Notes under the pieces: model-generated
What the model was told of the DNA's origin: nothing
The model's input: the letters and a program-made list of their open reading frames with translations, nothing else
The model's database searches: none
Assembly (NCBI GenBank): GCA_964627425.1
Contig: CAZVIY010000001.1
Span: 160,128 to 224,127, forward strand
Source: an uncultured Gemmatimonadota bacterium
GTDB taxonomy: Bacteria; Gemmatimonadota; Gemmatimonadetes; Palauibacterales; Palauibacteraceae
Direction of reading: 5' to 3'
Length of the DNA: 64,000 nt
Made by a program: the position numbers and the translations under genes
Shown: in pieces, positions 10,277 to 47,578 of the stretch
Position numbering within the stretch: position 1 is the first letter of the stretch
Layout of the letters: every line of letters starts with the position of its first letter

Positions 10277-10279
10277 GCC

Positions 10280-12309: not shown

Positions 12310-12310
12310 C

Positions 12311-14798
<2,488 letters not shown>

Positions 14799-14802
14799 GT
14801 CG

Positions 14803-17799: not shown

Positions 17800-17808
17800 G
17801 ACCCGCCG

Positions 17809-20126: not shown

Positions 20127-20221
20127 GTCACCGGGGAGGGCCCCCTCCTGTTCCCCCTGCCGGCCCGATGGGAACCCCCTCCCGGTCCGGACCGCCAGGA
20201 CCGGGGAACGGTACGATCACC

Positions 20222-20237
20222 TGGCACAAGCCTTGCT
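20222..20237 (+). promoter_or_regulatory. sigma54 (-24/-12) promoter TGGCAC-N5-TTGCT upstream of rpoN
   Basis: The sequence cCTGGCACaagccTTGCTa is an exact match to TGGCAC-N5-TTGCW. It is intergenic, on the + strand, about 90 nt upstream of the rpoN ATG. Confidence 0.7.
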
Positions 20238-20327
20238 AGGAGCCCGCGTCTCTCCTAGGTTGTACCGGACATGTGGCATCTTCGGGGGCCGGTTCGCCGG
20301 CCTCACCTCCAATCCGACCACGAGCCG

Positions 20328-22744: not shown

Positions 22745-22760
22745 GAGCCGGAGGAGACCG

Positions 22761-24380
22761 ATGACGGAGTCCAGCAGGGGAGCGGCGTCGGACCAGGGCC
22801 GTGTGTGGGGTCTCTCCCCGACGGGATGGTCGGCCCTGCTGGTGGGGATGCACGTGCTGCTGGGGCTCCTCCTGTTCGACCCCACCCTCTTCACCGGAGG
22901 CGACAACGCGGGGTACATGATCCTGGCCGACGCCCTCCGGTCGGGGGAGGGGTACGTGGACCTCTACCTCCCGGAGACGCCTCTCCATACGAAGTATCCT
23001 CCGGGCTACCCGGCGGCACTGGCGGTCCTGGGCCTGGCCGGCGGGCTCCAGCTCTTCAAGCTCTTCTCCCTGGCCTGTACGGCGACGGCGGTATGGCTCA
23101 CCCACCGGCTGGCGCGCCATCGGCTGGAGGCGGAGGCCGCCGTCGCGGCGACGGCCCTGGTGGCGGTGAATCCCGTCCTGCTGGAGTACTCCCACTACGA
23201 GCTCTCGGAGGCCTTCTTCCTGGCCGCCGTCATGGCCGCCCTGGTGGCCTATCTCACCCGGGAGCGCTGGCTCCAGGGAGCCGGGGCCTCGCTGGGAGCG
23301 TTCCTCGTCCGGACCGCGGGGCTCCCGCTCCTGGTCGCCACGTGGCTGTATCACCTGGGCCGGAGGGAGTGGCGACGACTGGGCACCACGGTGGCGGCGG
23401 GAACGGCCGTGGCCGGGGGATGGGCCCTCTACCAGACCCTGGGCGGGCGCAGCGGCGAGGGCTACCTGCAGCAGCTCGTCATGCGCAATCCCTACGACCC
23501 GGCGGCGGGCACGGCCGGGCCCGCGGAGCTGGTGACGCGCTCCGCGGGGAACCTGTGGGTCTACACGTCGGAGGTCCTCCCCCGATCCCTCCTGGGCGGC
23601 CCGCTCTCGCCGGAGGGAGGCACGGCGGCGATGGCCGTCGGCGTGACCGTGGGGGCGCTCGTCCTCACCGGTTGGCTCGCGGCGTCCCGCGACGAGCTCG
23701 GAGTGCCCGAGCTGTTCCTCCCCCTCTACGCCGGGATCATCGTCCTGTGGCCGGAGCAGTGGACGGACCGTCGGTTCCTGCTCCCCCTCCTCCCCCTGAT
23801 GCTGGTCTACGCGATCCGCGGGCTGGCGGCGGCCCGGCGCTGGGCCCCGGTGAAGGAGGGAGCCTCCATACGGTTCGCGGTGGCGGGGGCGCTCCTCCTG
23901 GCGGCACCCGGGATCGCCTCGGCGGGCCTCCAGGCGCCCGACCGGATCCGGTGCACCACCGCCCACTGGCGGGGCTCCCCGTGTGTGGATCCGGCCTGGA
24001 CGAGCTTCTACGACGCCGCCCGGTGGGCCGGGGACAACACCTCCGAGGACGCCATCGTGGCGAACCGGAAACCCCGGATCTTCTTCTGGCTCTCCGGGCG
24101 CCGCGGGGACGTCTATCCGTACAGCAGGGAGACCGGGGTCGTCCTGGAGGGCCTCCGGGAGATGGGAGCCGGGTACGTGGTGGTGGACCAGCTGTTCTCC
24201 ACCACGGCGACCTACCTCATCCCGGCCGTGCAGGCCCGGCCCGACCGGTTCGAGGCCGTCTACTCCGCCGGCTCTCCCCGGACCTTCATCCTCAGGATCC
24301 GGAGCCGGCCGCCGACGGCCGGGACCACCGGCGCCGACGATGGATCCGAGGGGGCCGCCGCCGGGCCAGCGGGGCCGTGA
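22761..24380 (+). CDS. polytopic GT-C-fold glycosyltransferase (ArnT/PMT-like)
   Basis: 539 aa with about 10 or more predicted TM segments. The first loop has a GGDNAGY...YLPETPLHTKYPPGYP motif typical of ArnT/PMT_2-type enzymes. A GGAGGAG Shine-Dalgarno sequence lies upstream. Confidence 0.7.
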   Translation: MTESSRGAASDQGRVWGLSPTGWSALLVGMHVLLGLLLFDPTLFTGGDNAGYMILADALRSGEGYVDLYLPETPLHTKYPPGYPAALAVLGLAGGLQLFKLFSLACTATAVWLTHRLARHRLEAEAAVAATALVAVNPVLLEYSHYELSEAFFLAAVMAALVAYLTRERWLQGAGASLGAFLVRTAGLPLLVATWLYHLGRREWRRLGTTVAAGTAVAGGWALYQTLGGRSGEGYLQQLVMRNPYDPAAGTAGPAELVTRSAGNLWVYTSEVLPRSLLGGPLSPEGGTAAMAVGVTVGALVLTGWLAASRDELGVPELFLPLYAGIIVLWPEQWTDRRFLLPLLPLMLVYAIRGLAAARRWAPVKEGASIRFAVAGALLLAAPGIASAGLQAPDRIRCTTAHWRGSPCVDPAWTSFYDAARWAGDNTSEDAIVANRKPRIFFWLSGRRGDVYPYSRETGVVLEGLREMGAGYVVVDQLFSTTATYLIPAVQARPDRFEAVYSAGSPRTFILRIRSRPPTAGTTGADDGSEGAAAGPAGP

Positions 24381-25711
24381 TGCGGGTCCTCCACGTGGCC
24401 ACCGCCTTCGCCCGGCACGAGGAGGACCCCATCACCCCCTGGATGGTCGAGCTCCTCCACGGCCTCCAGCGCCAGGGAGCCGAGGTGGAGGTCCTGGCAC
24501 CCTCCTACCGGGGGATGGACGATCACGTGGTCCACGGGATCCGGGTCCGGCGCTTCCGCTACGCCCCGGCCGTCCTGGAGACCCTCACCCACGAGGAGAC
24601 GACGCCGGACCGGATCCGGCACAGGCCCTGGTACGGGCTCCTCCTCCCCGCCTACCTCCTGGGCGGGCTCGTGCCGTCGGTGCGCCTGGGACTCGGCGGC
24701 TCCTACGACGTGGTCCACGTCCACTGGCCCATGCCCCATGCCCTCTTCGGGTCCGCCCTGCGCCTCGCCTCCCGCGGGCGCACGACAGTCGTCTCCAGCT
24801 TCTACAGCGTGGGCCTCACCTGGGTGGAGCATCGACTCCGGTGGCTCCGGCCGCTGCTGGCCTGGTCGGCCCGGAGCGCTGACGCCCTCACCGCCAACTC
24901 CACGGCCACGGCGGACAAGGTCCGGCGGCTCGTGGACACCCCGGTTCGGGTGGTCCCCTCGCCGGCCAGCTTCGGCGAGGGGGAGGGGAGGGGGGCGGAG
25001 GGTAGCGGTGACGGGGGAGCCGGCCAGGAGCCGGCCCGGCCCCCGCTGGACGGGAACGGGCCGGTGGAGCTGCTCTTCGTGGGCCGTCTGGTCGAGCGAA
25101 AAGGGGTCGAGTACCTTGTGCGCGCTCTCCCCCGAATCCTGGAGGAGCGGCCCGCCCGGCTCACGATCGTCGGGGAAGGGGAGTGGGAAGAGGAGATCCG
25201 GAGGGCCGTCGCCGACTGCGGGGTGGGTCGCCGGGTGAGGCTGACGGGATACGTCTCCCGGGAGCGCCTGAAGGAGCTCTACCGGACCTCCGACCTCTTC
25301 GTCCTCCCGGCGGTCGTGGACGAAAAGGGCGACACGGAGGGACTGGGGGTGGTCCTGCTGGAGGCCCTCCTGGCCGGGCGGCCGGTGGTGGCGTCGGCGG
25401 CCGGAGGCATCGTGGACATCGTGAAGCCGGGTCGGACGGGTTGGCTCGTACCGCCCGGAGACCCGGAAGCCCTGGCGCGGGCCGTCCTGGAAGCGGCCCG
25501 CGATCCGGAGGAGGCCCGGCGGCGGGCGGCAGAAGGGAAGCGACACGTCCTCGAGCACTTCTCTGCCGATCGCATCGCAGGGGAGCTCCTGGAGGTCTAC
25601 CGGAGGGCCTCCGGGTCCCGCCGGACCCCCGGGCCGACCGCAGGCGGCGCCGGCGGGAACGCCCGCCGCCGCGGCGACGGACGCCGAACCGAGGAAGGCG
25701 GAGACCCATGA
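24380..25711 (+). CDS. GT4 family glycosyltransferase
   Basis: N-terminus MRVLHVATAF... and a C-terminal GT-B motif FVLPAVVDEKGDTEGLGVVLLEALLAGRPVVAS. The start overlaps the upstream stop (TGATG). Confidence 0.88.
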   Translation: MRVLHVATAFARHEEDPITPWMVELLHGLQRQGAEVEVLAPSYRGMDDHVVHGIRVRRFRYAPAVLETLTHEETTPDRIRHRPWYGLLLPAYLLGGLVPSVRLGLGGSYDVVHVHWPMPHALFGSALRLASRGRTTVVSSFYSVGLTWVEHRLRWLRPLLAWSARSADALTANSTATADKVRRLVDTPVRVVPSPASFGEGEGRGAEGSGDGGAGQEPARPPLDGNGPVELLFVGRLVERKGVEYLVRALPRILEERPARLTIVGEGEWEEEIRRAVADCGVGRRVRLTGYVSRERLKELYRTSDLFVLPAVVDEKGDTEGLGVVLLEALLAGRPVVASAAGGIVDIVKPGRTGWLVPPGDPEALARAVLEAARDPEEARRRAAEGKRHVLEHFSADRIAGELLEVYRRASGSRRTPGPTAGGAGGNARRRGDGRRTEEGGDP

Positions 25712-28050
25712 CCGAGACGCCGGACACCGGGCGGTCGACGACGAGACCGGCCGATCGCTGGATCCCGTGGATCTACACGGCCGGGGTGCTGGTCCTGGCG
25801 CTGGCCTTCTACCGGGAGTTCGTCTTCCAGCCCGGGCGCATGCTCTTCGGCACGGACATGCTCGACCAGGCCTACCAGCTCCGGGAGTTCGGGCTCACCG
25901 AGGTCCGGGAGGGACGGGGCGTCCCCCTCTGGAACCCGTTCGTCTACGGAGGGCTCCCGTATCTCGCCATCCTCCCCGGTCCCGTGTTCTACCCCACGAG
26001 TCTGCTCTACCTCCTCATGCCCCTCTACCGGGCCATCGGATGGACCTTCGTGATCCACACCTTCCTGGCGGGGGGGATCGGCTACTTCGCTGCTCGCCGG
26101 TTCCGCCTGGATCGCCAGGCGGCGGCCGTCACGGGGCTGGCGTTCATGTTCACCGGCTACGTGGTCTCCCTCCTGTACGGCGGCCACGACGGGCGGATGT
26201 TCGCCATGATCCTCTTTCCCCTGGTCCTGGCCCTGGTGGAGGAGGGCCTGGAGCGGGGGCGGTACCCGTGGTTCCTGGCCGCGGGGATGGTCATGGGCCT
26301 GCAGATCCTCACCCCGCACGCCCAGGTGATGTACTACTCGTCGCTGATGGTGGCGGCGTTCGCGGCGTTCAGGCTCTGGGAGCGCTGGGAGGAGACGGAC
26401 CGGCCCGCCGAGCTCCTCCGGCCGGCGGGCTACGTGGCGTCCGCGTTCCTGGTGGCGGCGGCCGTGGGAGCGGTCCAGATCCTTCCCACCCTGGGGATGA
26501 TGGAGCACGGCGTCCGGGGCGGAGGAACGGGAGGGTACGAGTTCGCGTCCTCGTGGGCTCTCCCCCCGCAGGAGCTGACCGCCCTGGTGCTGCCCGACCT
26601 GGTGGGATCCTTGGACACCTACTGGGGATCGAATCCCTTCAAGCTGCACACCGAGTACCTGGGGGCGGTCCCGCTGGCGCTGGCGGTCCTCGGGGCGGCG
26701 GCACGGATCCGCCGCCGAACGATCTGGTTCCTCGTCGGCGCCTCGACCCTGGGGATCCTCTTCTCCCTGGGCGCGGCGACGCCGGTCCACAGGGTCGCCT
26801 ACGAGATCGTGCCGCTGGTCGACCGGTTCAGGGCGCCGGCCATGATGCTCGGTCCGGTCTCCTTCCTGATCTGCCTGCTGGCCGGCCACGGCTGGCAGGC
26901 GGTCCTCGACCGCCGCCGGGAGGAGGAGGGCGACGGGACGGCGATCCCGTGGGCATGGGCCTGGACCCTCTCGACGCCGGTCCTCCTCCTGGCCCTGGCG
27001 GCCGCCCTCGCCCCGGAGTCCCTCCAGCGGTGGGTTCACGTCGGCTGGTACCCCTCGGGTTGGGAGCGAAGCCCGGACCAGGCATCCGTCGCCGCGCTGC
27101 GGGCCAACGGCTGGCTCGTGCTGGTGGGCTGGGGCGCGGCCCTCGGATCCGGGTGGGCCGTGGCTCGCCGCCGGGTGGGCACCTGGATCGTCCTCGTCCC
27201 CCTCGTGCTCCTGGTGGGCGAGCTGTGGCGGGTGGACGCCCGCTACCTGGAGACGGCGGACCCGGAGCGCCAGTTCAGCTCCGACGCGGTGGTGGACAGG
27301 ATGCAGGAGGGCCTCGGGTCGGGCGAGCGGGCGTTCCCGCTGGAGCGCTCCTACGGCCCGAACGAGCTCATGTACTGGGACGTCCCCTCCGTCACCGGGA
27401 GCCAGAACTTCCGGCTGGCCTGGTACGACCGCCTGGTCGGCGGCGTCTCCTACGAGAACCTCATGAGCCGTCCCGTCCTGTGGCAGCTCCTGGACGTCCG
27501 CTATCTCACCACTCGCTCCGAAGTCCAGACGCCGCTCCTGGAGCCCGTCGCGCGGAGCGGACGCGCCCGGCTCTACCGGGTGGTCAGGGATGCGCCCCAC
27601 GCCTTCTTCCCCCGGGAGATCGTGGGAGCGAGCGACACGGCCGAGGCCCTGCGGCGTACCCTCGATCTGGAATCCCACGCGGCGGCCGCGGTGGTGGACG
27701 CCGACGCCCCCCTCCCTCCGGCAGGGGAGGGGGAGGCACGGCTGGAGCGGCTCGAAGCCGACGGTCTCGAGCTGACGGTCCGGGCCCGGGAGCGCGGCCT
27801 CCTGGTGGTCTCGGAGGTGTATCATCCGAACTGGAAGGCGACCCTCGACGGCCGGGAGATCCCCGTCCACCGGGTGAACGTGGCCCTCCGGGGTGTCGTG
27901 GTGCCCGAGGGGACCCACCGGCTGGAGTTCCGCTACGAGTCCGGGCTGTACCGGGCGGGGCTGGCCATCACGTCGGCGGGGGGAGGGATCGGGGCGGCGG
28001 CCCTCCTGATCTGGGCCGTGGCCGGCGTGCGGCGCCGCCGCGCCGACTGA
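25708..28050 (+). CDS. YfhO-family membrane glycosyltransferase (GT-C)
   Basis: 780 aa and polytopic. It has an N-terminal FGTDMLDQAYQLREF...PLWNPFVYGGLPY motif and the YfhO-type C-terminus VSEVYHPNWKATLDGREIPVHRVNVALRGVVVPEGTHRLEFRY followed by a final TM. ATGA overlap with the GT4 gene. Confidence 0.8.
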   Translation: MTETPDTGRSTTRPADRWIPWIYTAGVLVLALAFYREFVFQPGRMLFGTDMLDQAYQLREFGLTEVREGRGVPLWNPFVYGGLPYLAILPGPVFYPTSLLYLLMPLYRAIGWTFVIHTFLAGGIGYFAARRFRLDRQAAAVTGLAFMFTGYVVSLLYGGHDGRMFAMILFPLVLALVEEGLERGRYPWFLAAGMVMGLQILTPHAQVMYYSSLMVAAFAAFRLWERWEETDRPAELLRPAGYVASAFLVAAAVGAVQILPTLGMMEHGVRGGGTGGYEFASSWALPPQELTALVLPDLVGSLDTYWGSNPFKLHTEYLGAVPLALAVLGAAARIRRRTIWFLVGASTLGILFSLGAATPVHRVAYEIVPLVDRFRAPAMMLGPVSFLICLLAGHGWQAVLDRRREEEGDGTAIPWAWAWTLSTPVLLLALAAALAPESLQRWVHVGWYPSGWERSPDQASVAALRANGWLVLVGWGAALGSGWAVARRRVGTWIVLVPLVLLVGELWRVDARYLETADPERQFSSDAVVDRMQEGLGSGERAFPLERSYGPNELMYWDVPSVTGSQNFRLAWYDRLVGGVSYENLMSRPVLWQLLDVRYLTTRSEVQTPLLEPVARSGRARLYRVVRDAPHAFFPREIVGASDTAEALRRTLDLESHAAAAVVDADAPLPPAGEGEARLERLEADGLELTVRARERGLLVVSEVYHPNWKATLDGREIPVHRVNVALRGVVVPEGTHRLEFRYESGLYRAGLAITSAGGGIGAAALLIWAVAGVRRRRAD

Positions 28051-28060
28051 CCATCCGGAC

Positions 28061-29008
28061 GTGACCCGCCGTCGCTGGATCACCCTCGGCGCCGTCGTCT
28101 TCACGGCGGCCGGGCTCGTCTTCCTGGGCCTCGTGCTCGGAGACGAGTGGCACCGGCTCCAGGAGCTCACCGATTCGGTGGCCCGGCGGCGCTGGCAGGT
28201 GGAGCCGGCCCTCCTGGCGGCCTCCCTCGTGGTCGCGTCGGCCAACCTCGCATGCATGGCGACGATCTGGGTCCACCTCTACCGCCGGTCGGGCGGGGCG
28301 GTGGGCTACCTGGACGGCTGGCGCATCTGGAGCGCCACGAACGTGGGCCGGTACATCCCCGGAAAGGTGTGGCATCTCACGGGACTCACGGTCTATCTCC
28401 GGGAACGGGGCGAGTCGGGGGCCGCCGGCCTGGTGTCCTCGCTGGCGTTCCAGGTCCTGGTCCTGGCCACGGGGGCGGCCACGGCCGCGGTGGTCTTCGT
28501 CGGCGGCCCGGCCGCCCCCGACGGCCTCTCCCCCCTCCGGGCCCTCCTCGGCGCCGTCCTCCTGGGCCTCTTCCTGCACCCGGCGGTCCTCCGGAAGGGA
28601 ACCGAGTGGGCCGCGCGGCTCACCCGTGAAGACGTGGGCCATCCGGACCGGATCTCCGGCACGACCCTGCTGACGGCCGCCCTCGCCCTGTGTCTGTGCT
28701 GGCTGATCTACGGCCTCTCCCTCTGGCTGATGATCGAGGGCCTCCTCCCCGACGTGGAGCTCTCGGTCCCGGCCGCCACCGGAGTCTTCGCCGCCAGCTA
28801 CGTGCTCGGATACCTGGCCTTCCTCTCGCCCGGAGGCCTGGTGGTGCGGGAAGGGGTCATGGGCGGCCTCCTGGTGGTCCTGGGCGCCTCCGGCGCGGCG
28901 GTGGCCGGCGTCCTGGCCGTGGCCCACCGGATCCTGGTCACCGCCTCCGAGCTGCTCTTCCTGGCCGCGGCCTTCGGCATCCACGGGATACGACGCCGGG
29001 ACGCATGA
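28061..29008 (+). CDS. UPF0104 / lysyl-PG-synthase-TM-like (flippase-like) membrane protein
   Basis: 315 aa with about 8 TM segments and a RYIPGKVWHLTG loop. This family is commonly paired with GT2 polyprenyl-P glycosyltransferases. Confidence 0.6.
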   Translation: MTRRRWITLGAVVFTAAGLVFLGLVLGDEWHRLQELTDSVARRRWQVEPALLAASLVVASANLACMATIWVHLYRRSGGAVGYLDGWRIWSATNVGRYIPGKVWHLTGLTVYLRERGESGAAGLVSSLAFQVLVLATGAATAAVVFVGGPAAPDGLSPLRALLGAVLLGLFLHPAVLRKGTEWAARLTREDVGHPDRISGTTLLTAALALCLCWLIYGLSLWLMIEGLLPDVELSVPAATGVFAASYVLGYLAFLSPGGLVVREGVMGGLLVVLGASGAAVAGVLAVAHRILVTASELLFLAAAFGIHGIRRRDA

Positions 29009-29045
29009 CCCTCGCTCAAACCCTCTAATCGACTACTACTACTTA

Positions 29046-29054
29046 TGTTACAAT
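29046..29054 (+). promoter_or_regulatory. candidate extended -10 promoter element TGtTACAAT
   Basis: It lies in an AT-rich patch (29021-29060) within an otherwise roughly 70% GC context, 86 nt upstream of the ATG at 29140. No convincing -35 element is present. Confidence 0.35.
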
Positions 29055-29139
29055 CTGTCGCCTCACCTCGTTTCGAGACACTCGGGCCGGAGCCGGATCC
29101 ACCCGGAGGCCACCGCGGACGTCCCGGGAGCCCGGGACG

Positions 29140-29862
29140 ATGACACCGTACCTGGTCGTCATGCCCACGTACAACGAAGCGGCGAACCTGCCACGGATCG
29201 TCCCCGCCGTCCTGGACAGGGACGAACGATTCCAGGTCCTGGTGGTGGACGACGCCTCTCCCGACGGCACCGGACGGATCGCCGAACGGCTGGCCCGCGA
29301 CCATCCCGAACGGGTGCACGTGCTCCACCGGGAAGGGAAGCAGGGCCTGGGGAGTGCCTACGTGGCGGGATTCGAATGGGCCCTGGCGCGGGATTACGAG
29401 CTCATCTTCGAGATGGACGCCGACTTCTCCCACGATCCCGATCACCTGGAGGATTTCGTAGCGGCCTCCCACGACCACGACCTGGTGGTGGGAAGCCGAT
29501 ACCTGGACGGCCGCGTCACCGTGGTGAACTGGCCCATCACCCGCCTCCTCCTGAGCTATTTCGGCACACAGTACGCCCGGATCGTCACCGGACTCCCGGT
29601 CTCCGACGCCACCAGCGGCTACAAATGCTTCCGCAGGAGCGCCCTCGAAGAGCTGGATCTGGAGCGGGTGGCCTCCAACGGATACGTCTTCCAGATCGAG
29701 CTCACCTTTCGAGCCTGGAAGAAGGGTCTCTCCATCGGCCAGATTCCCATCGTCTTCGAGGAGCGCACCGAGGGAGAATCCAAGATGTCGAAAAGGATCG
29801 TGCTGGAGGCCGTCTGGAAAGTATGGCAGCTCAGACTACTCAGTCTCTTGGGGCGCATATGA
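29140..29862 (+). CDS. polyprenol/dolichol-phosphate mannose synthase (Ppm1/Dpm1-like GT2, soluble)
   Basis: 240 aa with VVMPTYNEAANL, VVDDASPDGT, EMDADFSHDP and SGYKCFRR motifs. GC content falls toward the 3' end. Confidence 0.9.
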   Translation: MTPYLVVMPTYNEAANLPRIVPAVLDRDERFQVLVVDDASPDGTGRIAERLARDHPERVHVLHREGKQGLGSAYVAGFEWALARDYELIFEMDADFSHDPDHLEDFVAASHDHDLVVGSRYLDGRVTVVNWPITRLLLSYFGTQYARIVTGLPVSDATSGYKCFRRSALEELDLERVASNGYVFQIELTFRAWKKGLSIGQIPIVFEERTEGESKMSKRIVLEAVWKVWQLRLLSLLGRI

Positions 29863-29910
29863 TTAGGGAAGGTCGAGATCCCACCTGCGAGGGCCCGTTG
29901 ATCTAGCGCG

Positions 29911-29938
29911 AGTTTACATAATGTATATTATACGACAT
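29911..29938 (-). other. dif: dif chromosome dimer resolution site (XerC arm - 6-bp spacer - XerD arm)
   Basis: The minus strand reads ATGTCGTATAA-TATACA-TTATGTAAACT. On the + strand, 15 nt (CATAATGTATATTAT) are identical to the E. coli dif core. The site sits between convergent genes at the gene-orientation switch. Confidence 0.8.
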
Positions 29939-30033
29939 TGTGGAAGAACCGGAATCGACCGGACCCATCGGGGCACTCCGGCGGACCGCCCGGGGCTGCG
30001 GATGTGGAGAAGTCGTCCCCGTTCAGGCCCTGC

Positions 30034-30735
30034 TCAGCTCCCGTCCGAGGAGCTCATGGCCGCCCGGACCTCGCCGAGCCGGAGGGCGTAGTTCCCCGCG
30101 TCCGGCGCGTCCTCGGGCGTCTCCTCGGCCAGGCGGGCGTAGATCTCGGCGGCCTCCTCCAGCTCCCCGGCCTCCGCCAGGAGCCGGGCGCGATCCGCCG
30201 CGGCCTCACGTCGCTGATACGCGAAGCGCGCCTCCTCGGCCAGACGAGCCTGGACCTCCATGGCCTCCTCCAGACGACCGGCCCCTTCCAGGGCGGCGGC
30301 CCGCAGGACTCCGGCGGAGTACCCTACGGGCGTGTCGGGCGGGAGACCCGTCAGGGGCTCCAGGTGGCCCAGCGCCTCGTCCCAGCGGTCGTTCGCCAGG
30401 GAGATCCTCGCCAGGAGCAGACGGGCCCGATCCGCGTACTGGGTGCCCTCGTAGGTGGTGAGGAACCCCTGGAGCCGCGCCGCCACCGAGTCCGCTGGCG
30501 CGCCGGTCTGGAGCTGGGCCGCCAGCTGCTGATACTGTGCCGAGGCCTCCTCGGTGAGGCCCTGGCGATAGTTCTGGTAGTACAGCCCGCCGAGGGCGAG
30601 GATCACCGCCACCGCCGCGCCCACGGCCACCACCTGACTGTTCTTCTGGACCCATCCGGCCAGCTGCAGGGTCTTCTCGACGAAGACGTCCTCGTCGGCC
30701 GCCGGTCCCTTCCCCTTCTTCCGTTGATTCGCCAT
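30034..30735 (-). CDS. YfgM-like membrane-anchored TPR-like protein
   Basis: 233 aa with a basic N-terminus, a single TM (VVAVGAAVAVILALGGLYY), and then a helical repeat region rich in A/E/L/R. Confidence 0.6.
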   Translation of the reverse strand: MANQRKKGKGPAADEDVFVEKTLQLAGWVQKNSQVVAVGAAVAVILALGGLYYQNYRQGLTEEASAQYQQLAAQLQTGAPADSVAARLQGFLTTYEGTQYADRARLLLARISLANDRWDEALGHLEPLTGLPPDTPVGYSAGVLRAAALEGAGRLEEAMEVQARLAEEARFAYQRREAAADRARLLAEAGELEEAAEIYARLAEETPEDAPDAGNYALRLGEVRAAMSSSDGS

Positions 30736-30761
30736 ATGCCTCTACGCTCCCCGGTTGACTC

Positions 30762-31298
30762 TCATTCGCCTTCGAACTCCCGCGCTCCGGTCACCAGACA
30801 CCATGTCTCCCCCGTACCCTCGTCGTGCCGGCGGCCGACGGACACCGTTCCCACGGCGACGGCACCGGCCGACCGTACCTCCTGGAGGGCCTTCTTCGCC
30901 CCGCGGCCGGAGAGGACCGTCACCACGAGGACTCTCTCGCTCTCCATGAACGGGCTCCCGGGTCCCTCGGGAGCCGGGCGGGCTCCCGTCCGACGGCGGA
31001 GCGGCAGCCCGCACTCCCGGGCCAGGGGCGCCGCCAGCAGGAGGTCTCCGCTGCCTGCCGGCAGGAGGGCGTCGGGGCTCCGTCTCCGAACCTCGGGAGC
31101 CAGCCGGCGCACCGCCTCGTCCAGGAGCCGGGGCTCGGCGCAGAGCGCCGACCAGAGGGCCTCCTCCCCTCCACTGCCCGACAGCGCCCGGACCGCCTCG
31201 TCCTCGAGGGAGCGGGCCGCCTCGGGTACGTACACCCCGGCCCGCAGGAGCTCCTCGGGAACCGCGTCGGTGTCGTCCCCCTTCCCTTCCTGCGTCAC
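30762..31298 (-). CDS. phosphoribosyltransferase-fold protein with a degenerate PRPP loop
   Basis: The segment RVLVVTVLSGRGAKKALQEVRSAGAVAVGTVSV aligns to the PRTase VLVVDDVxTTGxT loop, but the acidic pair and TTG are lacking. GTG 31298 overlaps the yqaA stop (GTGA). Confidence 0.45.
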   Translation of the reverse strand: MTQEGKGDDTDAVPEELLRAGVYVPEAARSLEDEAVRALSGSGGEEALWSALCAEPRLLDEAVRRLAPEVRRRSPDALLPAGSGDLLLAAPLARECGLPLRRRTGARPAPEGPGSPFMESERVLVVTVLSGRGAKKALQEVRSAGAVAVGTVSVGRRHDEGTGETWCLVTGAREFEGE

Positions 31299-31918
31299 AG
31301 CACCCCCAGGGCCAGGAATCCGCCCACGACGGCGGCCGCCAGGGCCAGGGAGACCCAGCCGAAGTGGCGTTCGATGAACTCCCGAATCTGGGGGCCGAAG
31401 ACCCGGAGGAGCCCGGCGACGGCGAAGAACCGGATCCCCCGGCTGACCGTCGAGACGGCCAGGAACGCGGGGAGGGAGACCGCGAAGCCGCCCCCCGCGA
31501 TGGTGAACACCTTGAACGGGATCGGCGTGAGGCCGGCGGTCCCCAGCGTCACGACGAGGTTCTCCTGGAAGAGTCGGCCCACCCGTCGGTATTCCTCCAT
31601 GTATCCGTACAGCTCCAGGATGGGCGCCGCCACCGTCTGATACAGCCCCGCCCCGATGAGGTATCCCAGCGCCGCGCCCACCACCGATCCCAGGGTGCAG
31701 AGGGCGGCGAAGAACCAGGCCCGGCGGGGTCGACTGATGACCATGGGGATGAGGAGCACGTCGGGCGGAATGGGGAAGAAGGTGGCCTCCGCCACCGCCA
31801 CCCCCGTCAGCGCCCACGGGCCGCCCGGACGATGGGCCCACGAGAGGACCCACCGGTAGAGGCGGCGCAGGGGACGCCAGCCGGCCTCCGGCGCCTCCCC
31901 CGACGGCGCCCTCACCAT
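31295..31918 (-). CDS. YqaA-family (DedA-related) membrane protein
   Basis: The translation has VAEATFFPIPPDVLLIP and LTPIPFKVFTIAGG. ATG 31918 lies 1 nt from the pcm stop codon (7-nt coordinate overlap). Confidence 0.8.
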   Translation of the reverse strand: MVRAPSGEAPEAGWRPLRRLYRWVLSWAHRPGGPWALTGVAVAEATFFPIPPDVLLIPMVISRPRRAWFFAALCTLGSVVGAALGYLIGAGLYQTVAAPILELYGYMEEYRRVGRLFQENLVVTLGTAGLTPIPFKVFTIAGGGFAVSLPAFLAVSTVSRGIRFFAVAGLLRVFGPQIREFIERHFGWVSLALAAAVVGGFLALGVL

Positions 31919-32550
31919 CCCTCGTCGCCCAGCAGGGGCACGAAACGGGCCACGTCCACCGGCTCGTCGCTCCATCCCCCCTCGGTCCGCACCACCCTCC
32001 GCAGCTCCTGGGCGTCGCCCCGTCCCACCGGGACCAGGAGTCTGCCTCCCTCGGCGAGCTGGGCCCGGAGCGCCTCGGGGACCTCGGGGGCGGCCGCGCC
32101 CACCAGGATCACGTCGAAGGGAGCCGCCGACGGCCATCCCCGGCTCCCGTCCCCGACCCGGAGCTCCACGTCCACGGCGCCGATCTCCTCCAGCTCGCGC
32201 CGGGCCCGCTCCGCGAGCTCCGGGACCCGCTCGATGGAGTACACTTCGGCCGCCAGCCGGGAGAGGAGCCCCGTCTGGAAGCCCGAGCCGGTCCCCACCT
32301 CCAGCACCCGCTCCCCGCCCCGGAGCCCGGCCAGGGACAGGTGGAGCGCGTGGACGCTGGGCCGGGAGATCGTCTGACCGTGGCCGATGGGGAGCGCGGC
32401 GTCCTCGTAGGCGCGATGACGCACCCCCTCGGGGACGAACCGGTGCCGGGGCACGGCGTCGAAGGCGTGGAGGACGGCCATGTCGGAGATCCCCGACTCC
32501 CGGAGGCGCTCCACCAGCCGCCGGCGCTGGCGGCGATAGGAGGCCGTCAT
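31912..32550 (-). CDS. pcm: protein-L-isoaspartate O-methyltransferase
   Basis: The translation has GQTISRPSVHA, the SAM motif VLEVGTGSGFQT and LVPVG. ATGA overlap with the surE stop. Confidence 0.92.
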   Translation of the reverse strand: MTASYRRQRRRLVERLRESGISDMAVLHAFDAVPRHRFVPEGVRHRAYEDAALPIGHGQTISRPSVHALHLSLAGLRGGERVLEVGTGSGFQTGLLSRLAAEVYSIERVPELAERARRELEEIGAVDVELRVGDGSRGWPSAAPFDVILVGAAAPEVPEALRAQLAEGGRLLVPVGRGDAQELRRVVRTEGGWSDEPVDVARFVPLLGDEGW

Positions 32551-33335
32551 GACAGACCGACCTCCCATCCCCGGACCTCCTCCATCAGCCGGAAGTTCGT
32601 CAGGTCCAGGTGGAGGGGCGTGACGGAGATGTACCCGGCACGGACCGCCTTGAAGTCGGAGTCGTCCCGGCCCGACCACCGGGATTCCCCCCCGCCGATC
32701 CAGAAGTACTCCCGCCCCTGCGGGTCCTCCCGCCGGGCCAGCGAGTCGGCGTACACCCGCCGTCCCAGGGCCGTGATCCTGACCCCCGCGAGCTCGTCGG
32801 CGGACACCGGCGGGACGTTCACGTTGAAGAAGGTCTCCGGGGGGAAGTCGTCCCGGGACAGGAGGTCCTCCAGCAGGCGGGTCAGGGGCTCCTCGAACTG
32901 CCCCAGGGTCTCGGTGTCGCCCCCGGCGAAGGAGAGGGCCACGGCGGGGATGCCCAGGATGGTGGCCTCCATGGCTGCGGCCACCGTTCCCGAATAGAGC
33001 ACGTCCTCTCCCATGTTGGGACCGTGGTTCACGCCCGACAGGACGAAATCGGGCGACTCCTCCAGGAGTTGATTCACCGCCAGGAGCACGCAGTCGGTGG
33101 GAGTCCCGTCCACCACCTGTCGTCCCTTCCCCGCCCCGGTGACGCGGAGGGGCCGGTGGAGGGTGAGGGAATGGCTGCTGGCGCTCTGTTGCCGGTCCGG
33201 CGCCACGACCCGGACCCGGCCCAGGGACGAGGCCACCCGCACCAGGAGCGCGAGCCCCTCGGCGTGGACGCCGTCGTCGTTGGTGCAGAGGATCCGCCGG
33301 CGCCGCCGGGACTCCTCCTCCGGCGGGTCCGTCAT
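32547..33335 (-). CDS. surE: 5'/3'-nucleotidase SurE
   Basis: The translation has ILCTNDDGVHAEGL, GVNHGPNMGEDVLYSGTVAAAME and SVTPL. The conserved surE-pcm pair is present. Confidence 0.93.
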   Translation of the reverse strand: MTDPPEEESRRRRRILCTNDDGVHAEGLALLVRVASSLGRVRVVAPDRQQSASSHSLTLHRPLRVTGAGKGRQVVDGTPTDCVLLAVNQLLEESPDFVLSGVNHGPNMGEDVLYSGTVAAAMEATILGIPAVALSFAGGDTETLGQFEEPLTRLLEDLLSRDDFPPETFFNVNVPPVSADELAGVRITALGRRVYADSLARREDPQGREYFWIGGGESRWSGRDDSDFKAVRAGYISVTPLHLDLTNFRLMEEVRGWEVGLS

Positions 33336-33688
33336 TCCTCCAGCGACAGGAGGGACACCAGCTCGTCGGCCTCCCTGCGGAGGTCCCGGACCGTCTGGGA
33401 GTCCAGCGCCATGTTCGCCGCCCGATCCAGCCGGCCGTCCGATCGGAGCTGATCTAGCTTCTGCCGTGCGCCTTCGATGGTGTATTTTTCGGTATAGAGG
33501 AGGTGACGGATGAGCTGGATCAGCTTGATCTCCCTGCGGCGGAACACCCGGTTCCCCGCCTGGTTCTTGGACGGATTCAGGGAGCCGAACTGGCTCTCCC
33601 AGTACCGTATCACGTGGGGCTTGAGCTCGGTGATGTCGCAGACCTCACCGATGGAATAGTACTCCTTGGGGGCGATGCGGTCGTCCAC
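33332..33688 (-). CDS. MerR-family transcriptional regulator
   Basis: HTH YSIGEVCDITELKPHVIRYWESQF...NRVFRRREI. The GTG 33688 start, 5 nt after the gpsA stop, is tentative. The ORF track extends to 33787, overlapping gpsA. Confidence 0.8.
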   Translation of the reverse strand: MDDRIAPKEYYSIGEVCDITELKPHVIRYWESQFGSLNPSKNQAGNRVFRRREIKLIQLIRHLLYTEKYTIEGARQKLDQLRSDGRLDRAANMALDSQTVRDLRREADELVSLLSLEE

Positions 33689-33692
33689 GGGA

Positions 33693-34754
33693 TCAGCTCC
33701 AGTGCTCCGGTTTCGGTCGTCGGGCCATGAGATCGGCCAGGGCCTCCTTCGGCTCCACGCCGTCGTGCAGGATGGAACATACCGCATCCACGATGGGCAT
33801 CTCCACCCCGTGCTCCCCGGCCATCTCCCGCACGGCCCGGGCCGTGCGGAAGCCCTCCACCACCTGATCCATCTCCGCCAGGACCCGATCCACCGATCCC
33901 CCCCGTCCGATGGCCAGCCCCACCCGTCGGTTTCGGCTCAGATCGCCGGTGCACGTCAGGATCAGATCGCCGGTCCCGGCCAGGCCGGCGAGGGTCATGG
34001 GATCCCCTCCCATCTCCGTGACCAGCCGGAACAGCTCGGCCAGGCCCCGGGTGATGAGCGCGGCCCGGGCGTTGTTCCCCAGCTCCAGGCCGTCGCTGAT
34101 ACCGGCGGCGATGGCGATGACGTTCTTCACCGCCCCGCCGAGCTCCACCCCCACCACGTCGTCCTGGGTGTAGACCCGGAGATGGTCGTTCTGGAAGAGG
34201 GACTGGGCCCGGAGGGCGTTCTCCCGGCTCCGGGAGGCGGCGGCCACCGCCGTCGGGGCGCCCTCCACGAGCTCGGCGGCGAAGCTCGGGCCCGACAGCA
34301 CCACCAGGTCCCGCGACCAGGAGGCGTCGAAGACCTGGTGGAGGACCTGACTCATCCGGAGGTCGCTCTCCAGCTCCAGCCCCTTGGAGCCGCTGATCAG
34401 GAGTGGAGAGGATGGGAGGAACCCGGCCACGTCCTCGGCCACCTGGCGGACGGCATGGGAAGGGATGGCACACACCACGGCCTCGGCCTCTGCCAGCGCC
34501 GTGTCGTAGTCCTCCGTCGCCTGGAGGGAGGAGGGGAGCCGGGCCCCCGGGAGGTACTTCTCGTTGCGGGCCTCGTGCCGAACCTCCCGTGCCACGCGGG
34601 GATCGCGGGCCCAGAGCCGGACCCTGTGGCCGTTCCGCGCCAGGACCGCGCCCAGGGCGGTGCCCCAGCTCCCGGCGCCCAGGACCGTCACCCGCCGCGG
34701 CCGGCGGTCCTCCGGGAGGTCCGGGGTCGGGATCCGATCGTCGTCCACCCTCAT
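33693..34754 (-). CDS. gpsA: NAD(P)H-dependent glycerol-3-phosphate dehydrogenase
   Basis: The translation has VTVLGAGSWGTALG, GPSFAAE and GAVKNVIAIAAG. ATG 34754 overlaps the plsY stop (ATGA). Confidence 0.93.
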   Translation of the reverse strand: MRVDDDRIPTPDLPEDRRPRRVTVLGAGSWGTALGAVLARNGHRVRLWARDPRVAREVRHEARNEKYLPGARLPSSLQATEDYDTALAEAEAVVCAIPSHAVRQVAEDVAGFLPSSPLLISGSKGLELESDLRMSQVLHQVFDASWSRDLVVLSGPSFAAELVEGAPTAVAAASRSRENALRAQSLFQNDHLRVYTQDDVVGVELGGAVKNVIAIAAGISDGLELGNNARAALITRGLAELFRLVTEMGGDPMTLAGLAGTGDLILTCTGDLSRNRRVGLAIGRGGSVDRVLAEMDQVVEGFRTARAVREMAGEHGVEMPIVDAVCSILHDGVEPKEALADLMARRPKPEHWS

Positions 34755-35404
34755 CCCCCCGCGCCCCGTTCCGTCGGCTCCTCGGCCCCGCCGTCCCTGT
34801 CGCCCTCTCCTCCGCTCCCGCTCAGGGCCAGCTCGTCGCCACGCCGCAGCCGCGCCAGGTTGTCCCGATGCGTCCACCACGCGAAGGGCACCAGGATCAC
34901 GGTGAAGGCCACGGTGGAGCTCGGCTCGCCGAGACCCCAGGCCACCAGGGGAGTCAGCGTCACCGCCGTGAGGGACGCCACCGAGGGAGCTCCCACGGAG
35001 AGGAGGAGCCCCAGCCATCCCGTCGCCGCGACGAGGCCGGTGACCGGCGACAGGGCCAGGAGTACGCCGGCCGCGGTGGCGATGCCCTTTCCTCCGTCGA
35101 ACCGGAGGAAGACCGACCACACGTGTCCCGCGATGGCGGCGGCGCCGTAGACCAGGGGGAGGTGGGCCACGGCCGTCCCGTCGAGGAGGGGGAAGTACCA
35201 GACCGGGACGAAGCCTTTCAGGACGTCCACGGCCGCCACCGGAAGCGCGGCCCGGGGACCGAGGACCCGGAACACGTTGGAGCTCCCCAGGTTCCCGCTG
35301 CCCCGCCGGCGGAGGTCGATCCCCGCCCGGCGGCCCGCCAGGTGCCCCGCCGGCACGGACCCGCACAGATACGCCACCAGCACGAACGCGGCAGCCTGCA
35401 TCAT
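34751..35404 (-). CDS. plsY: glycerol-3-phosphate acyltransferase PlsY
   Basis: 217 aa with GSGNLGSSNVFR, DVLKG and the FLRFDGGKGIAT motif. Confidence 0.92.
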   Translation of the reverse strand: MMQAAAFVLVAYLCGSVPAGHLAGRRAGIDLRRRGSGNLGSSNVFRVLGPRAALPVAAVDVLKGFVPVWYFPLLDGTAVAHLPLVYGAAAIAGHVWSVFLRFDGGKGIATAAGVLLALSPVTGLVAATGWLGLLLSVGAPSVASLTAVTLTPLVAWGLGEPSSTVAFTVILVPFAWWTHRDNLARLRRGDELALSGSGGEGDRDGGAEEPTERGAGG

Positions 35405-35420
35405 GCGGACCGCACCTCCC

Positions 35421-36803
35421 TCACACCCGGTAGCCCCGGGGCTCCCGTCCCGACGATTCCTTCGTCTTGATCCGGACGGGCACGCCCTCGAACCCCCACG
35501 CGTCCCGGAACCCGTTCTCCAGATAGCGCAGGTAGTGGGCCGGGATCTCCTCCGGCCTGTTGGACCAGACGGCGAAGAGCGGCGGCTCCGACGCCACCTG
35601 GCTCCCGTAGAGGATCCGGACGTCTCCGCTGCCGCCCTGGGGGGGCTGCCGGCGTCCCACCAGCCCCTCCAGCACCCGGTTCACCTCGGCGGTGGGAATC
35701 CGGCGGGACCGCTCCGCGCGCACCTCCAGCGCCAGGTCCAGGACCTTCCGCACCCGCTGTCCGGTGAGGGCGGAAGTGGTCACCACCGGCACCCAGCGCA
35801 GGTAGGCGGCCCGGTCGCGGAGGGCCTCGACGAAGTTCGCCACCACCGAGGGGCCCCGATCCTCCACCAGGTCCCACTTGTTCGCCGCCAGCACCAGCCC
35901 GCGCCCCTGGTCCCAGGCGTCCTCGCCGATCCGGAAGTCCTGGTTCGCCACCCCGGCCTCACAGTCCACCACCAGCACGCACACCTCCGCCCGCCGGATG
36001 GCGGCGGCCGCCCGGACGCGGCTGTAGAACTCCACGTCGTCGGAGACCCGGGACTGCCGCCGGAGACCCGCCGTGTCGATGAGCTGGATCGTCCGGTCCC
36101 CGTACTCCAGGTAGGTGTCGATGGCGTCGCGGGTGGTCCCCGCCTCCTCGTGGACCACCACCCGCTCCTCGCCCAGCAGGCGGTTCACCAGGCTGGACTT
36201 TCCCACGTTGGGGCGGCCCACCACGGCCAGGCTCAGGTCCACCCCGGCGGGCGCGGACGGCTCGCCGGCCGGCAGCTTCTCCACCACCCGGTCCAGGAGG
36301 TCGCCGCTCCCCTTCCCCGTCATGGCCGACACGGGCTGGGGCTCCCCCAGGCCCAGGCTCCAGAACTCGTGATGCCGGAGATCGCCCGCCGGGTTGTCCA
36401 TCTTGTTGACGGCCACCTGCACCGGGCGGCCCGACTCGCGGAGGAGGTCGGCGATCTGGAGGTCCACCGGTGCCACGCCCTGGCCGGCGTCCACCACGAA
36501 GATCAGGACGTCGGCGTGCTCGATGGCGGCCAGCACCTGGCGGCGAACGGCCTCCTCCAGGGGGGCGTCGGCCCGGTCCTGGATCCCCCCGGTGTCCACC
36601 AGGAGGAACGGCCGCCCCGCCCACTCGGCTCGGGAGAAGTTGCGGTCGCGGGTCACCCCCGGACGCTCGGCCACGATGGCCACCCTCTCCCCCACCACCC
36701 GGTTGAAGAGGGTGGACTTCCCGACGTTCGGGCGGCCCACCACGGCCACCGTGGGCAGTGCCACGCCGGAGTCGGCGCGGCGGTCACGCGACGCGACGGT
36801 CAT
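35421..36803 (-). CDS. der: ribosome biogenesis GTPase Der (EngA), tandem GTPase domains
   Basis: Two G-domains (GRPNVGKSTLFN, GRPNVGKSSLVN) and a KH-like C-terminus. Confidence 0.95.
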   Translation of the reverse strand: MTVASRDRRADSGVALPTVAVVGRPNVGKSTLFNRVVGERVAIVAERPGVTRDRNFSRAEWAGRPFLLVDTGGIQDRADAPLEEAVRRQVLAAIEHADVLIFVVDAGQGVAPVDLQIADLLRESGRPVQVAVNKMDNPAGDLRHHEFWSLGLGEPQPVSAMTGKGSGDLLDRVVEKLPAGEPSAPAGVDLSLAVVGRPNVGKSSLVNRLLGEERVVVHEEAGTTRDAIDTYLEYGDRTIQLIDTAGLRRQSRVSDDVEFYSRVRAAAAIRRAEVCVLVVDCEAGVANQDFRIGEDAWDQGRGLVLAANKWDLVEDRGPSVVANFVEALRDRAAYLRWVPVVTTSALTGQRVRKVLDLALEVRAERSRRIPTAEVNRVLEGLVGRRQPPQGGSGDVRILYGSQVASEPPLFAVWSNRPEEIPAHYLRYLENGFRDAWGFEGVPVRIKTKESSGREPRGYRV

Positions 36804-36883
36804 GGTCTCGGGGGGCCGCGGCGGGCCGGCCCGCGCCGGTCCCCGGGGGGAACCGGACGGGCCGGAGGCTCAGGCCGCCGCGA

Positions 36884-38227
36884 TCAGAGCTCGCCGTAGC
36901 GGAAGGTCACGGCGCCGGCCGTCGCCTGGAACTGGGTCTGGAACTGGGTCCGCTCCCCCTGGGCGGGGAGCTCGATCTCCAGATCCCTGGTGTCGACCAC
37001 GTCGCCGTTCTCATCCAGGAGCTCGACGGCCAGGGTGATGGTCCCCTGATCCATGCTCACGTTCTCCACCACGCCCTGGATGGCGTAGGTGCCCTCGCCC
37101 GGCGTGGCCATGCCCAGCTGGTGGAACCTCACGGGCATGGTCTTCATCCGGTCCAGGAGGTCCTGCGCCCGCTGGGAATCACCGGCCTGGCTGAAGGCCC
37201 GTACGGCCAGGGAGAGGTTCTGGTTGTCGTGGGGGTACCACCGGGCCAGCGTGTCCGAGATGGCGGTGGCGGCCTCGAACTGCTTGGACTGGACCAGGGA
37301 GCTCCCCAGGTTCTCCATGGCCTCCTTGTTCATCGGGTTCAGCTCGCGGGCGGCCTGGAACGCCTCGGCGGCCATCTCGAAGTTCTGAGCCTGATAGAAC
37401 CCCACGCCCAGGCGGGTCCGACCCTCGAAGTCCAGCTGGTCGATCTGGCCCATCATCTCCGTGTAGATGGCCTGGGCCGAGTCCTCCTGGCCCGCCTCCG
37501 CCAGCGTCTGGGCGTAGTTGATCCGGAGGCCCACGTCCTCAGGGTTCTCGGCCATGAAGTGCCGGAGCATCGCGAGGGCCTCTTCGGGGCTCCCCTGCTC
37601 CCTGCGGATCTGCACCAGGTTGGTGACCGCTTCCCGGACCCGCTCCGGCTCCCCACCGGCGTCCAGGACCTGCTCGTACATCACCGCCGCCGAGTCCAGC
37701 TGGCCCTGCTGCCGGTACAGCGTCCCGGCGTTCACCAGGGACCGGGCGTCCTTGTAGATGTTGCTGGCCCTGACGAAGTAGGTGAGTGCCTCGGCGGTGG
37801 CCCCTCCCTGGTAGGCCTCGATGGCCTGGTTGTACAGGCGGGCCCACGCCGAGTATCGGACCTCCTCGGCGAAGCTCGCGCACTCGGAGCGGAGCTCCAC
37901 GAACCGGTTCAGGTACTGGTCGGCCCGATCGTAATTCCTCAGGCCGAGCTGGGCCTGGGCGGCCAGGACCCACAGGGTGGCGTCGTCGGTGCCCGACTCG
38001 ATGGGCTCCCGGAGCTGCTCCCACGCCCTCTGGAACAGCTCGCGCTGCTCCCCCTGGGCCAGGGCGCTGTCCTGCTGGGCCTGGGTCAGGAACTGCTGCG
38101 CCGCCGTGGCTTCGGGGCTGGGCTGCAGCTGACATTCCTGCTGCTGCTGCTGCTCCTGCCCGAGGGCGGTGGCCGGGAGGGCCAGGAGGAGGAACGAGAT
38201 GCAGAGGGTGCCGAGCGTCTTCTTCAT
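36884..38227 (-). CDS. secreted tetratricopeptide-repeat protein with a C-terminal beta-rich domain
   Basis: ATG 38227 has a GGAAGG Shine-Dalgarno sequence and a signal peptide MKKTLGTLCISFLLLALPATALG. A poly-Q tract, multiple TPR-like A/Y/L repeats and a beta-sandwich-like tail follow. Confidence 0.8.
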   Translation of the reverse strand: MKKTLGTLCISFLLLALPATALGQEQQQQQECQLQPSPEATAAQQFLTQAQQDSALAQGEQRELFQRAWEQLREPIESGTDDATLWVLAAQAQLGLRNYDRADQYLNRFVELRSECASFAEEVRYSAWARLYNQAIEAYQGGATAEALTYFVRASNIYKDARSLVNAGTLYRQQGQLDSAAVMYEQVLDAGGEPERVREAVTNLVQIRREQGSPEEALAMLRHFMAENPEDVGLRINYAQTLAEAGQEDSAQAIYTEMMGQIDQLDFEGRTRLGVGFYQAQNFEMAAEAFQAARELNPMNKEAMENLGSSLVQSKQFEAATAISDTLARWYPHDNQNLSLAVRAFSQAGDSQRAQDLLDRMKTMPVRFHQLGMATPGEGTYAIQGVVENVSMDQGTITLAVELLDENGDVVDTRDLEIELPAQGERTQFQTQFQATAGAVTFRYGEL

Positions 38228-38392
38228 GTCGTGTACCTTCCGGCTCCTGATTCGTGATCGTCCCGGGGCGTGACCGGCCGGGATCCTTGCGGTCGGACCC
38301 TGCTCTATCGTGGCTTCATCTACCGGAATGGGCCCGATCCGTTCCGCCGGCGGGTCCCCGGCGACCACCCCTGCCGCAACGCCCGCGGCACC

Positions 38393-40986: not shown

Positions 40987-41228
40987 CGTGGCTCCTGGTC
41001 GGGGGAATCCGGGGAGGCGGACCCGGCGGCCCGCTCCCGTCCGCCTCCGTCGGCGGTCGGGGGTCGGGCCTCGTGGCCCTCACACCGGAGGACGGGGAGC
41101 CGGGGGTAGCGGCGATAGCTCGGGTCCCGGGCCGCCCGGCGACAGAGCCAGAACCGCGACCCCCGGTCGCTCTCCACCACCCGGGCGTGCCGGCAGTCTC
41201 CGCAGAGTCCGGGGTCGGGGGACCTCAC
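40983..41228 (-). CDS. small Cys4 (zinc-ribbon-like) hypothetical protein
   Basis: 81 aa with GLCGDCRHARVVESDRGSRFWLCRRAARDPSYRRYPRLPVLRCEGH. GTGA overlap with the uvrC stop and ATGA overlap with the gltX start. Confidence 0.5.
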   Translation of the reverse strand: MRSPDPGLCGDCRHARVVESDRGSRFWLCRRAARDPSYRRYPRLPVLRCEGHEARPPTADGGGRERAAGSASPDSPDQEPR

Positions 41229-47573: not shown

Positions 47574-47578
47574 GGCCC

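Follow-up and report, generated by a model that had tools for sequence, protein, structure and literature searches.

The chromosome of an uncultured, Gemmatimonadota-like bacterium carries, between two convergent genes, a 28-bp sequence that is very probably its dif site, at which XerC and XerD recombine. This identification draws on all that can be tested in 64 kb, the length of the whole stretch of DNA that was analysed (hereafter, the window). The sequence has the dif architecture and a dif-type XerD arm, is low in G+C, is intergenic and is unique in the window; it also lies near the GC skew maximum and at the switch in gene orientation, on a core chromosome that encodes a cognate XerD, and it leaves a footprint in relatives. 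The claim of the first-pass annotation that this is the dimer resolution site is supported on each of these points. Somewhat less firmly, we infer that both replichores end at or near dif, for which the complete reversal of gene orientation is the only argument not drawn from the site.

Read directly, the plus strand of the site is AGTTTACATAATGTATATTATACGACAT and the minus strand is ATGTCGTATAATATACATTATGTAAACT, with the 11-6-11 layout around TATACA on the minus strand exactly as it had been described in the first-pass annotation (Table 1). We take the minus strand as the canonical orientation because TTATGTAAACT fits XerD arms far better. The two 11-bp arms show partial dyad symmetry around the 6-bp centre: the inner ATAA/TTAT bases are symmetric, and the arms are self-complementary at 6/11 positions. 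The presumed role of TATACA as the strand-exchange region follows from established Xer biochemistry. The 28-mer, placed in non-coding DNA, has a GC content of 21%, against 71% (70–71%) for the window.

Table 1. Features of the window, and loci in other genomes with a DnaA-box-like motif beside dif.
Feature	Position	Strand	Remarks
Very probable dif, 28-bp XerC/XerD recombination site	29911..29938	-	reads ATGTCGTATAA TATACA TTATGTAAACT; kept at 89–93% in syntenic relatives
XerD-binding arm TTATGTAAACT	29911..29921	-	11/11 vs B. subtilis dif XerD arm, 9/11 vs E. coli
Central 6-bp (putative strand-exchange) region TATACA	29922..29927	-	5/6 vs B. subtilis; read from sequence
XerC-binding arm ATGTCGTATAA	29928..29938	-	inner ATAA kept, outer bases vary among relatives
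DnaA-box-like 9-mer TCTTCCACA	29939..29947	-	plus strand TGTGGAAGA; abuts XerC arm; weak copy
Second DnaA-box-like 9-mer TTCTCCACA	30003..30011	-	plus strand TGTGGAGAA; same orientation, 64 bp from XerC arm
Intergenic gap between convergent GT2 and TPR genes	29863..30033		171 bp
Family-2 glycosyltransferase (GT2) gene	29140..29862	+	Pfam PF00535, 6e-34; ends 48 bp from XerD arm
TPR_21-domain protein gene	30034..30735	-	Pfam PF09976, 1.6e-14; ends 95 bp from XerC arm
xerD, tyrosine recombinase	9329..10276 (start may be 9371)	+	expected to bind TTATGTAAACT arm
Left arm	1..29862	+	about 31 core genes: sucCD, ndk, rpmF, plsX-fabDG-acpP-fabF, ispF, xerD, kdsB, pyrG
Left arm, further genes	1..29862	+	kdsA/C/D, lptC/B, rpoN, glycosyltransferases
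Right arm	30034..64000	-	about 31 core genes: pcm, surE, gpsA, plsY, der, gltX, uvrC, murJ, bshC, nadB
Right arm, further genes	30034..64000	-	lpxK/B/A/C-fabZ/D, skp, bamA, clpC, mcsB/A
Motif on XerD side, other loci			L036, L028, L048, L007, L021, L049, L057, L078
Motif on XerD side, further loci			L092, L102, L103, L117, L132, L164, L190, L215
Motif on XerC side			L072, L088, L017, L205, L091, window

The fit to a degenerate dif consensus is perfect, as the first-pass annotation had it, with no mismatch on the minus strand, and the site is the sole match in the window when up to three mismatches are allowed. The consensus string had been given there as a published one; it was found neither in Carnoy & Roten 2009 nor elsewhere in the literature searched. 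In an exhaustive mismatch scan the runner-up 28-mer of the window differs from this consensus at nine positions, and no additional XerD-arm or XerC-arm half-site was detected anywhere in the window. The notion that the 28-mer is nothing but a chance AT-rich near-palindrome without function, for which its short length is the only argument, has next to no probability in our judgement: none of 100 dinucleotide-preserving shuffles matched the consensus at three or fewer mismatches, an identical 21-nt core occurs in 94 contigs of other genomes, and the phylogenetic footprint described below is sharp. The chance reading is effectively refuted by the shuffles, the recurrence of the core and the footprint.

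Comparison of the proposed dif with the reference sites of Bacillus subtilis and Escherichia coli, in the form in which they are printed in Kono et al. 2011 (PMC3025954), places it closest to the former. The B. subtilis site (ACTTCCTAGAATATATATTATGTAAACT; CodV/RipX with SpoIIIE/SftA), which has been characterised by experiment, shares the 28-bp length and the 11-6-11 layout and is identical at 23/28 positions, and the identity of the XerD/RipX arm stated at first pass holds at all 11 positions against these printed sequences; the XerC/CodV arm matches at only 7/11. XerC arms are typically variable at their outer positions (Carnoy & Roten 2009, PMC2731167). Unlike B. subtilis, this Gemmatimonadota-like host has a high GC content and is a diderm, with lpx, bamA and lpt genes among those of the window. 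The E. coli site (GGTGCGCATAATGTATATTATGTTAAAT; XerC/XerD/FtsK) has the same architecture and likewise lies at a terminus between converging replichores, with 19/28 identical positions overall and 6/11 in the XerC arm. The stretch of 15 contiguous plus-strand bases identical to the E. coli core (CATAATGTATATTAT), to which the first-pass annotation had drawn attention, is real and reflects the near-palindromic nature of the core.

Within the phylum itself, a dif site has been predicted for Gemmatimonas aurantiaca (Kono et al. 2011, BMC Genomics 12:19). In that work dif in Gemmatimonadetes was predicted with both Proteobacteria and Chlorobi profiles, one genome being available at the time, and prediction in this group was best seeded by Firmicutes-type profiles (PMC3025954). 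Unlike G. aurantiaca, the genome studied here belongs to an uncultured lineage, with no more than about 73% identity to its nearest representative (L091) over the flanking genes.

Genes were called by third-position GC, and one that the caller missed, kdsB (12311–12862), was added separately. To the left of the site are 30 plus-strand genes (31 with kdsB) and to its right 31 minus-strand genes, with none opposed on either side, so that about 62 of 62 genes point at dif and the strand switch falls exactly at the site. The orientation pattern had been noticed at first pass, with the same number of genes on the left and 32, rather than 31, on the right. A strand bias as complete as this, 31 genes followed by 31, is commoner in Firmicutes than in most diderm phyla. 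The gap between the two flanking genes has the length that was claimed for it, 171 bp, but its description as AT-rich applies only to the 28-mer: GC is 0.60 for the whole gap and about 0.67 when the 28-mer is left out, versus 0.71 for the window. Neither a sigma-70-like promoter nor an intrinsic terminator was detected in the gap.

Pfam scans of essentially all window genes define the content of the two arms (Table 1), and no plasmid, phage or transposon gene is present among those scanned. Since core housekeeping genes fill both arms, we regard the window as part of the main chromosome. One of its genes encodes a 431-aa LpxC-FabZ fusion protein (53456–54751). A Firmicute-style cluster of ClpC/McsB/McsA-like (UVR-domain) genes at 58984–63266 and a homologue of bshC, for bacillithiol synthesis, at 44672–46276 are found in what is a diderm, LPS-making genome.

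GC skew also changes sign near the site. On the plus strand it is +0.028 to the left of dif and -0.071 to the right, and both the maximum of cumulative G-C and the best single change-point fall at about 28,506, which is 1.4 kb from dif as measured within the 64-kb window only. In proteobacteria the median distance from dif to the skew peak is 7.3 kb (PMC2731167), and 1.4 kb falls well within the published spread. The earlier impression of a G-rich left and a C-rich right half is confirmed as to the change of sign, but gene orientation and skew cannot be separated here. It is the first codon positions that carry the flip, with a coding-strand skew of +0.21 and +0.19 in the two arms; no flip is seen at third positions (-0.073 in the left arm, +0.008 in the right arm) or in intergenic DNA. 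As the flip resides in codon position 1 and all genes are co-oriented with the presumed direction of replication, the skew of the window adds nothing beyond gene orientation, and the window is without visible replication-linked mutational skew. Within 2 kb of dif, the GT2 side even has the "wrong" sign, and in the 8-kb flanks of the site in other genomes the expected sign is seen in only 40 of 61 cases. Some relatives show an apparent origin-type skew, which we dismissed, as local gene composition dominates flanks of a few kb.

Oligomer polarity behaves in the same way. The first-pass annotation had proposed to test whether G-rich octamers of the KOPS type reverse at the site; many oligomers do invert polarity at dif, and GGGNAGGG points toward rather than away from it by 35:8, but this polarity is not diagnostic. 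Unlike in E. coli, GGGNAGGG is not over-represented, with 43 copies observed against 49.9 expected in the window, and its polarity ranks 43 among 1,467 comparable patterns, about 5% of which are equally skewed, as codon structure predicts. We therefore set GGGNAGGG aside as evidence for KOPS: it is polar, but neither enriched nor exceptional, and its polarity is confounded with the coding strand. A second candidate for a guiding motif, GTGGARRA, is about 6-fold over-represented in the window (46 observed versus 7.5 expected; for example at 1753, 5720, 35860 and 62300), mostly in the form GTGGAGGA, which is itself polar toward dif by 25:6. It was also set aside, as it probably represents Val-Glu-Glu/Asp codons of co-oriented genes, and the two instances within the gap face away from dif.

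Taking these results into account, it could be that the site is a genuine dif, but that the replication forks meet some distance away, with the strand switch being the junction of two co-oriented gene blocks. The coding-strand origin of the whole skew flip leaves no independent mutational signature of a terminus, which speaks for such an arrangement, as does the fact that relatives from the Gemmatimonadales and Longimicrobiales do not always have convergent genes beside dif. On the other hand, dif works only within the zone where FtsK-guiding polarity converges, and about 62 of 62 genes reverse exactly at dif. Comparative work bears on both sides of the matter: the site of termination can differ from dif (Kono et al. 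2011, PMC3025954), whereas across proteobacteria the position of dif correlates with that of the skew peak with R2 = 0.998 (PMC2731167). We consider a distant meeting point of the forks unlikely, and continue with the reading in which the proposed dif marks the end of both replichores or a point near it.

The recombinase gene in the left arm, reported at first pass as of the XerC/D family and 20 kb from the site, can be assigned more closely. It scores 349 bits on TIGR02225, the NCBI XerD equivalog model (cutoff 329.6), and stays below the cutoff of the XerC model; its best match among solved structures is E. coli XerD (1A0P, 3e-60, full length). Neither a second tyrosine recombinase (XerC) nor FtsK is present among the approximately 61 window genes scanned.

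With its steps carried over from the established Xer/FtsK systems of E. coli and B. subtilis, the mechanism that we propose would run as follows. Once replication is complete, each sister chromosome would be bound by an XerC monomer at the ATGTCGTATAA arm and an XerD monomer at the TTATGTAAACT arm, and the two dif sites would synapse. The septum-anchored FtsK translocase, on reaching dif, would activate XerD for the first strand exchange across TATACA, and XerC would resolve the resulting Holliday junction, so that the chromosome dimer is converted to monomers. The site would mark, exactly or very nearly, the replication terminus of the main chromosome in a Gemmatimonadota-like bacterium, and this location is the proposed reason why the genes on both sides point to it. 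By analogy with the two model systems we infer the order of strand exchange; likewise, XerC and FtsK would be encoded elsewhere in the genome, and the forks would meet here.

Conservation in other genomes fits the identification of the site as dif. The 21-nt core, comprising the centre and the XerD arm, was detected in 94 contigs, with a single copy on each, that come from about 93 other genomes of many phyla, a set that carries an ascertainment bias, being the result of an exact 21-mer query against species-representative genomes. It is single-copy in 92 of the roughly 93 genomes and occurs on two contigs in one. Among these contigs the XerC arm varies and the XerD arm is kept, and in most cases the site falls between genes; the flanking genes converge more often than they take any other arrangement (34/76), and 64% of coding bases across these loci point at the site.

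Two observations from this collection deserve separate mention. A deltaproteobacterial MAG of 49% GC (JAPLJZ010000098.1), otherwise an unrelated genome, contains the exact 28-mer of the window including the XerC arm, which illustrates the constraint on dif sequence. In a Rickettsiales MAG (JAIRZE01), two loci, L040 and L053, have in common a 57-bp identical stretch centred on one and the same 28-mer and share nothing else; it could be that this genome has two Xer sites, that the stretch is the junction of an element, or that the assembly forks there.

The nearest relatives in the species-representative collection, which does not include the genome of the window, are Gemmatimonadota MAGs, namely L091, followed by L043, L010 and L083, and matches of 99.9–100% to the window come only from Logan contigs of at most 4 kb. 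The sequence is present in the samples SRR9010616, SRR26668056, SRR26668040 and SRR26668043. Synteny extends to both sides of dif in L091, L043 and L165. In L091, L043, L165, L010 and L083 the 28-mer is 89–93% identical to that of the window and the rest of the gap only 29–45%, and the gap alignment appears as a clean phylogenetic footprint of dif. L043 (CAXMRU010000217.1) is labelled Akkermansiaceae, but at 64% GC and with synteny to Gemmatimonadota on both sides of dif it is probably mis-binned.

The neighbourhood of the site is conserved as well. GT2 glycosyltransferase homologues are found near dif in at least 14 loci, and linkage of GT2 to dif on the XerD side, which holds for much of the phylum, was noted in L013, L036, L094, L028, L037, L048, L011 and L007, and further in L072, L083, L093, L015, L102, L117, L164 and L185. 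Between GT2 and dif, Gemmatimonadales and Longimicrobiales carry a PlsC-type acyltransferase gene, sometimes along with 0.4–0.8 kb of non-coding DNA, and the window is without it. The gene neighbourhood at the terminus is unusually stable. Where relatives have long stretches free of genes, no Rfam family reached gathering score in the eight loci searched for structured RNA, and a protein gene starting just past dif was rejected for these genomes on account of junk translations and low third-position GC.

In many loci of Gemmatimonadales and Longimicrobiales, the XerD arm is directly followed by TGTGGAAAA, GTGGATAAC or TGTGGAGAA. The consensus of these 9-mers, TGTGGAAAAC, is the reverse complement of the DnaA-box-type sequence GTTTTCCACA. 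When the motif is scored as TTWTNCACA with at most one mismatch, Gemmatimonadota loci contain 4.17 copies per kb within 100 bp of dif versus 0.11 elsewhere in the same loci (about 38-fold; Poisson p ~3e-25), and high-GC metagenome loci contain 2.93 near dif versus 0.19 elsewhere. Eleven further high-GC loci, from Brevibacterium, Sphingomonas and others, lack the motif, and 160 low-GC loci show no enrichment. An unbiased hexamer scan of non-redundant loci returned the same sequence, with TGTGGA, GTGGAA, TGGAAA, GGAAAA and GAAAAC at the top and the leading signal present in 12 of 36 loci, where about 0.25 would be expected (p ~1e-17).

The placement of the motif is regular. Offsets are fixed and phased by about 10 bp, at +5/+15 as counted from the XerD arm, or at -11/0 relative to the XerC arm, and the CACA end always faces dif. 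A third, inverted box near +33 (TTATCCAC or TTGTCCAC) seems to be present in L103, L132 and L215, of which the scored scan called only L103. The window itself has no strict TTWTNCACA box in its 64 kb; TGTGGARRA occurs exactly twice, in both cases in the gap. These two weak copies are missing from four of the five closest relatives, and the significance of the motif copies in the window genome is uncertain.

Several sources of the motif were considered and rejected. Coding sequence was discarded as its origin. An oriC usually adjoins dnaA/dnaN at a skew minimum and combines several DnaA boxes with an AT-rich unwinding element. A cluster of DnaA boxes marking an oriC at dif was dismissed, as the relatives hold only one to three boxes, all at fixed offsets, and the genes converge instead of diverging. 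An IS or MITE origin was discarded in view of the lack of consistent terminal inverted repeats and of a transposase, and the homology that the flanks of motif loci do share is that of the converging PlsC-type acyltransferase gene, which the gene caller had missed. For the ISAba32 group in particular, no element homology extends beyond about 25 bp.

The motif bears likewise on the possibility that the 28-mer is not a chromosomal dif at all, but the attachment site or junction of a mobile element that exploits Xer recombination, such as an IMEX, a prophage, a plasmid-type xrs cassette or an IS of the ISAba32 group. IMEXs do use Xer sites, and ISAba32-group elements insert 5–6 bp from Xer sites with a TGT terminus (bioRxiv 10.1101/2022.12.17.520857); TGTGGA... 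motifs adjoin dif in this phylum. An integrated IMEX carries non-core genes between dif and a second dif-like site that is often degenerate, and an ISAba32-group insertion comes with a 5–6-bp target duplication. The first base of the motif nevertheless varies (T/C/G) and the motif lies mostly on the XerD side, unlike the ends of ISAba32. The core is also present in seven viral contigs, but all seven have a GC content of 30–46% and are unrelated. In the 30 kb to each side of the 28-mer there is neither a second or degenerate dif-like site nor a half-site; transposase, phage and plasmid genes are absent, and the flanks consist of core genes that are syntenic across dif in relatives. We hold a mobile-element junction to be highly improbable, and retain the assignment of the 28-mer as chromosomal dif.

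A precedent for the motif may be sought in the accessory sequences of other Xer sites. Plasmid cer/psi sites, and xrs sites associated with ISAba32-group IS, resemble the Gemmatimonadota loci (+5/+15) in that a short and constant interval separates the Xer core from a conserved sequence. The accessory regions of cer/psi differ in being about 180 bp long, lying on the XerC side and binding ArgR/PepA/ArcA, and the ISAba32 ends differ in lying on the XerC side together with a transposase; the Gemmatimonadota motif comprises two to three DnaA-box-like 9-mers that lie for the most part beyond the XerD arm and are not joined to any element. No report of such a dif-adjacent element was found in the literature searched. 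It is conceivable, though we regard it as doubtful, that dif in Gemmatimonadota has acquired a lineage-specific accessory element of one to three phased DnaA-box-type 9-mers, degenerate in the window. We offer the hypothesis that DnaA or another protein may bind the motif beside dif.

As a dif, the site is ordinary: dif/XerCD is nearly universal and has already been predicted in this phylum, so that there is no new biology in the site itself. Its practical value is that dif would fix the terminus of an uncultured Gemmatimonadota-like chromosome, which helps assembly orientation, annotation and peak-to-trough estimates of growth rate. The dif-adjacent motif is the only part of these results that could lead to new biology. 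If it binds DnaA or another protein, it could couple dimer resolution or termination to titration of the initiator; it could also be a polar barrier at the point of fork fusion, or modulate the access of XerCD/FtsK. A phased motif that is restricted to one phylum and abuts dif would allow the idea of an accessory element to be tested on a dif site of chromosomal type.
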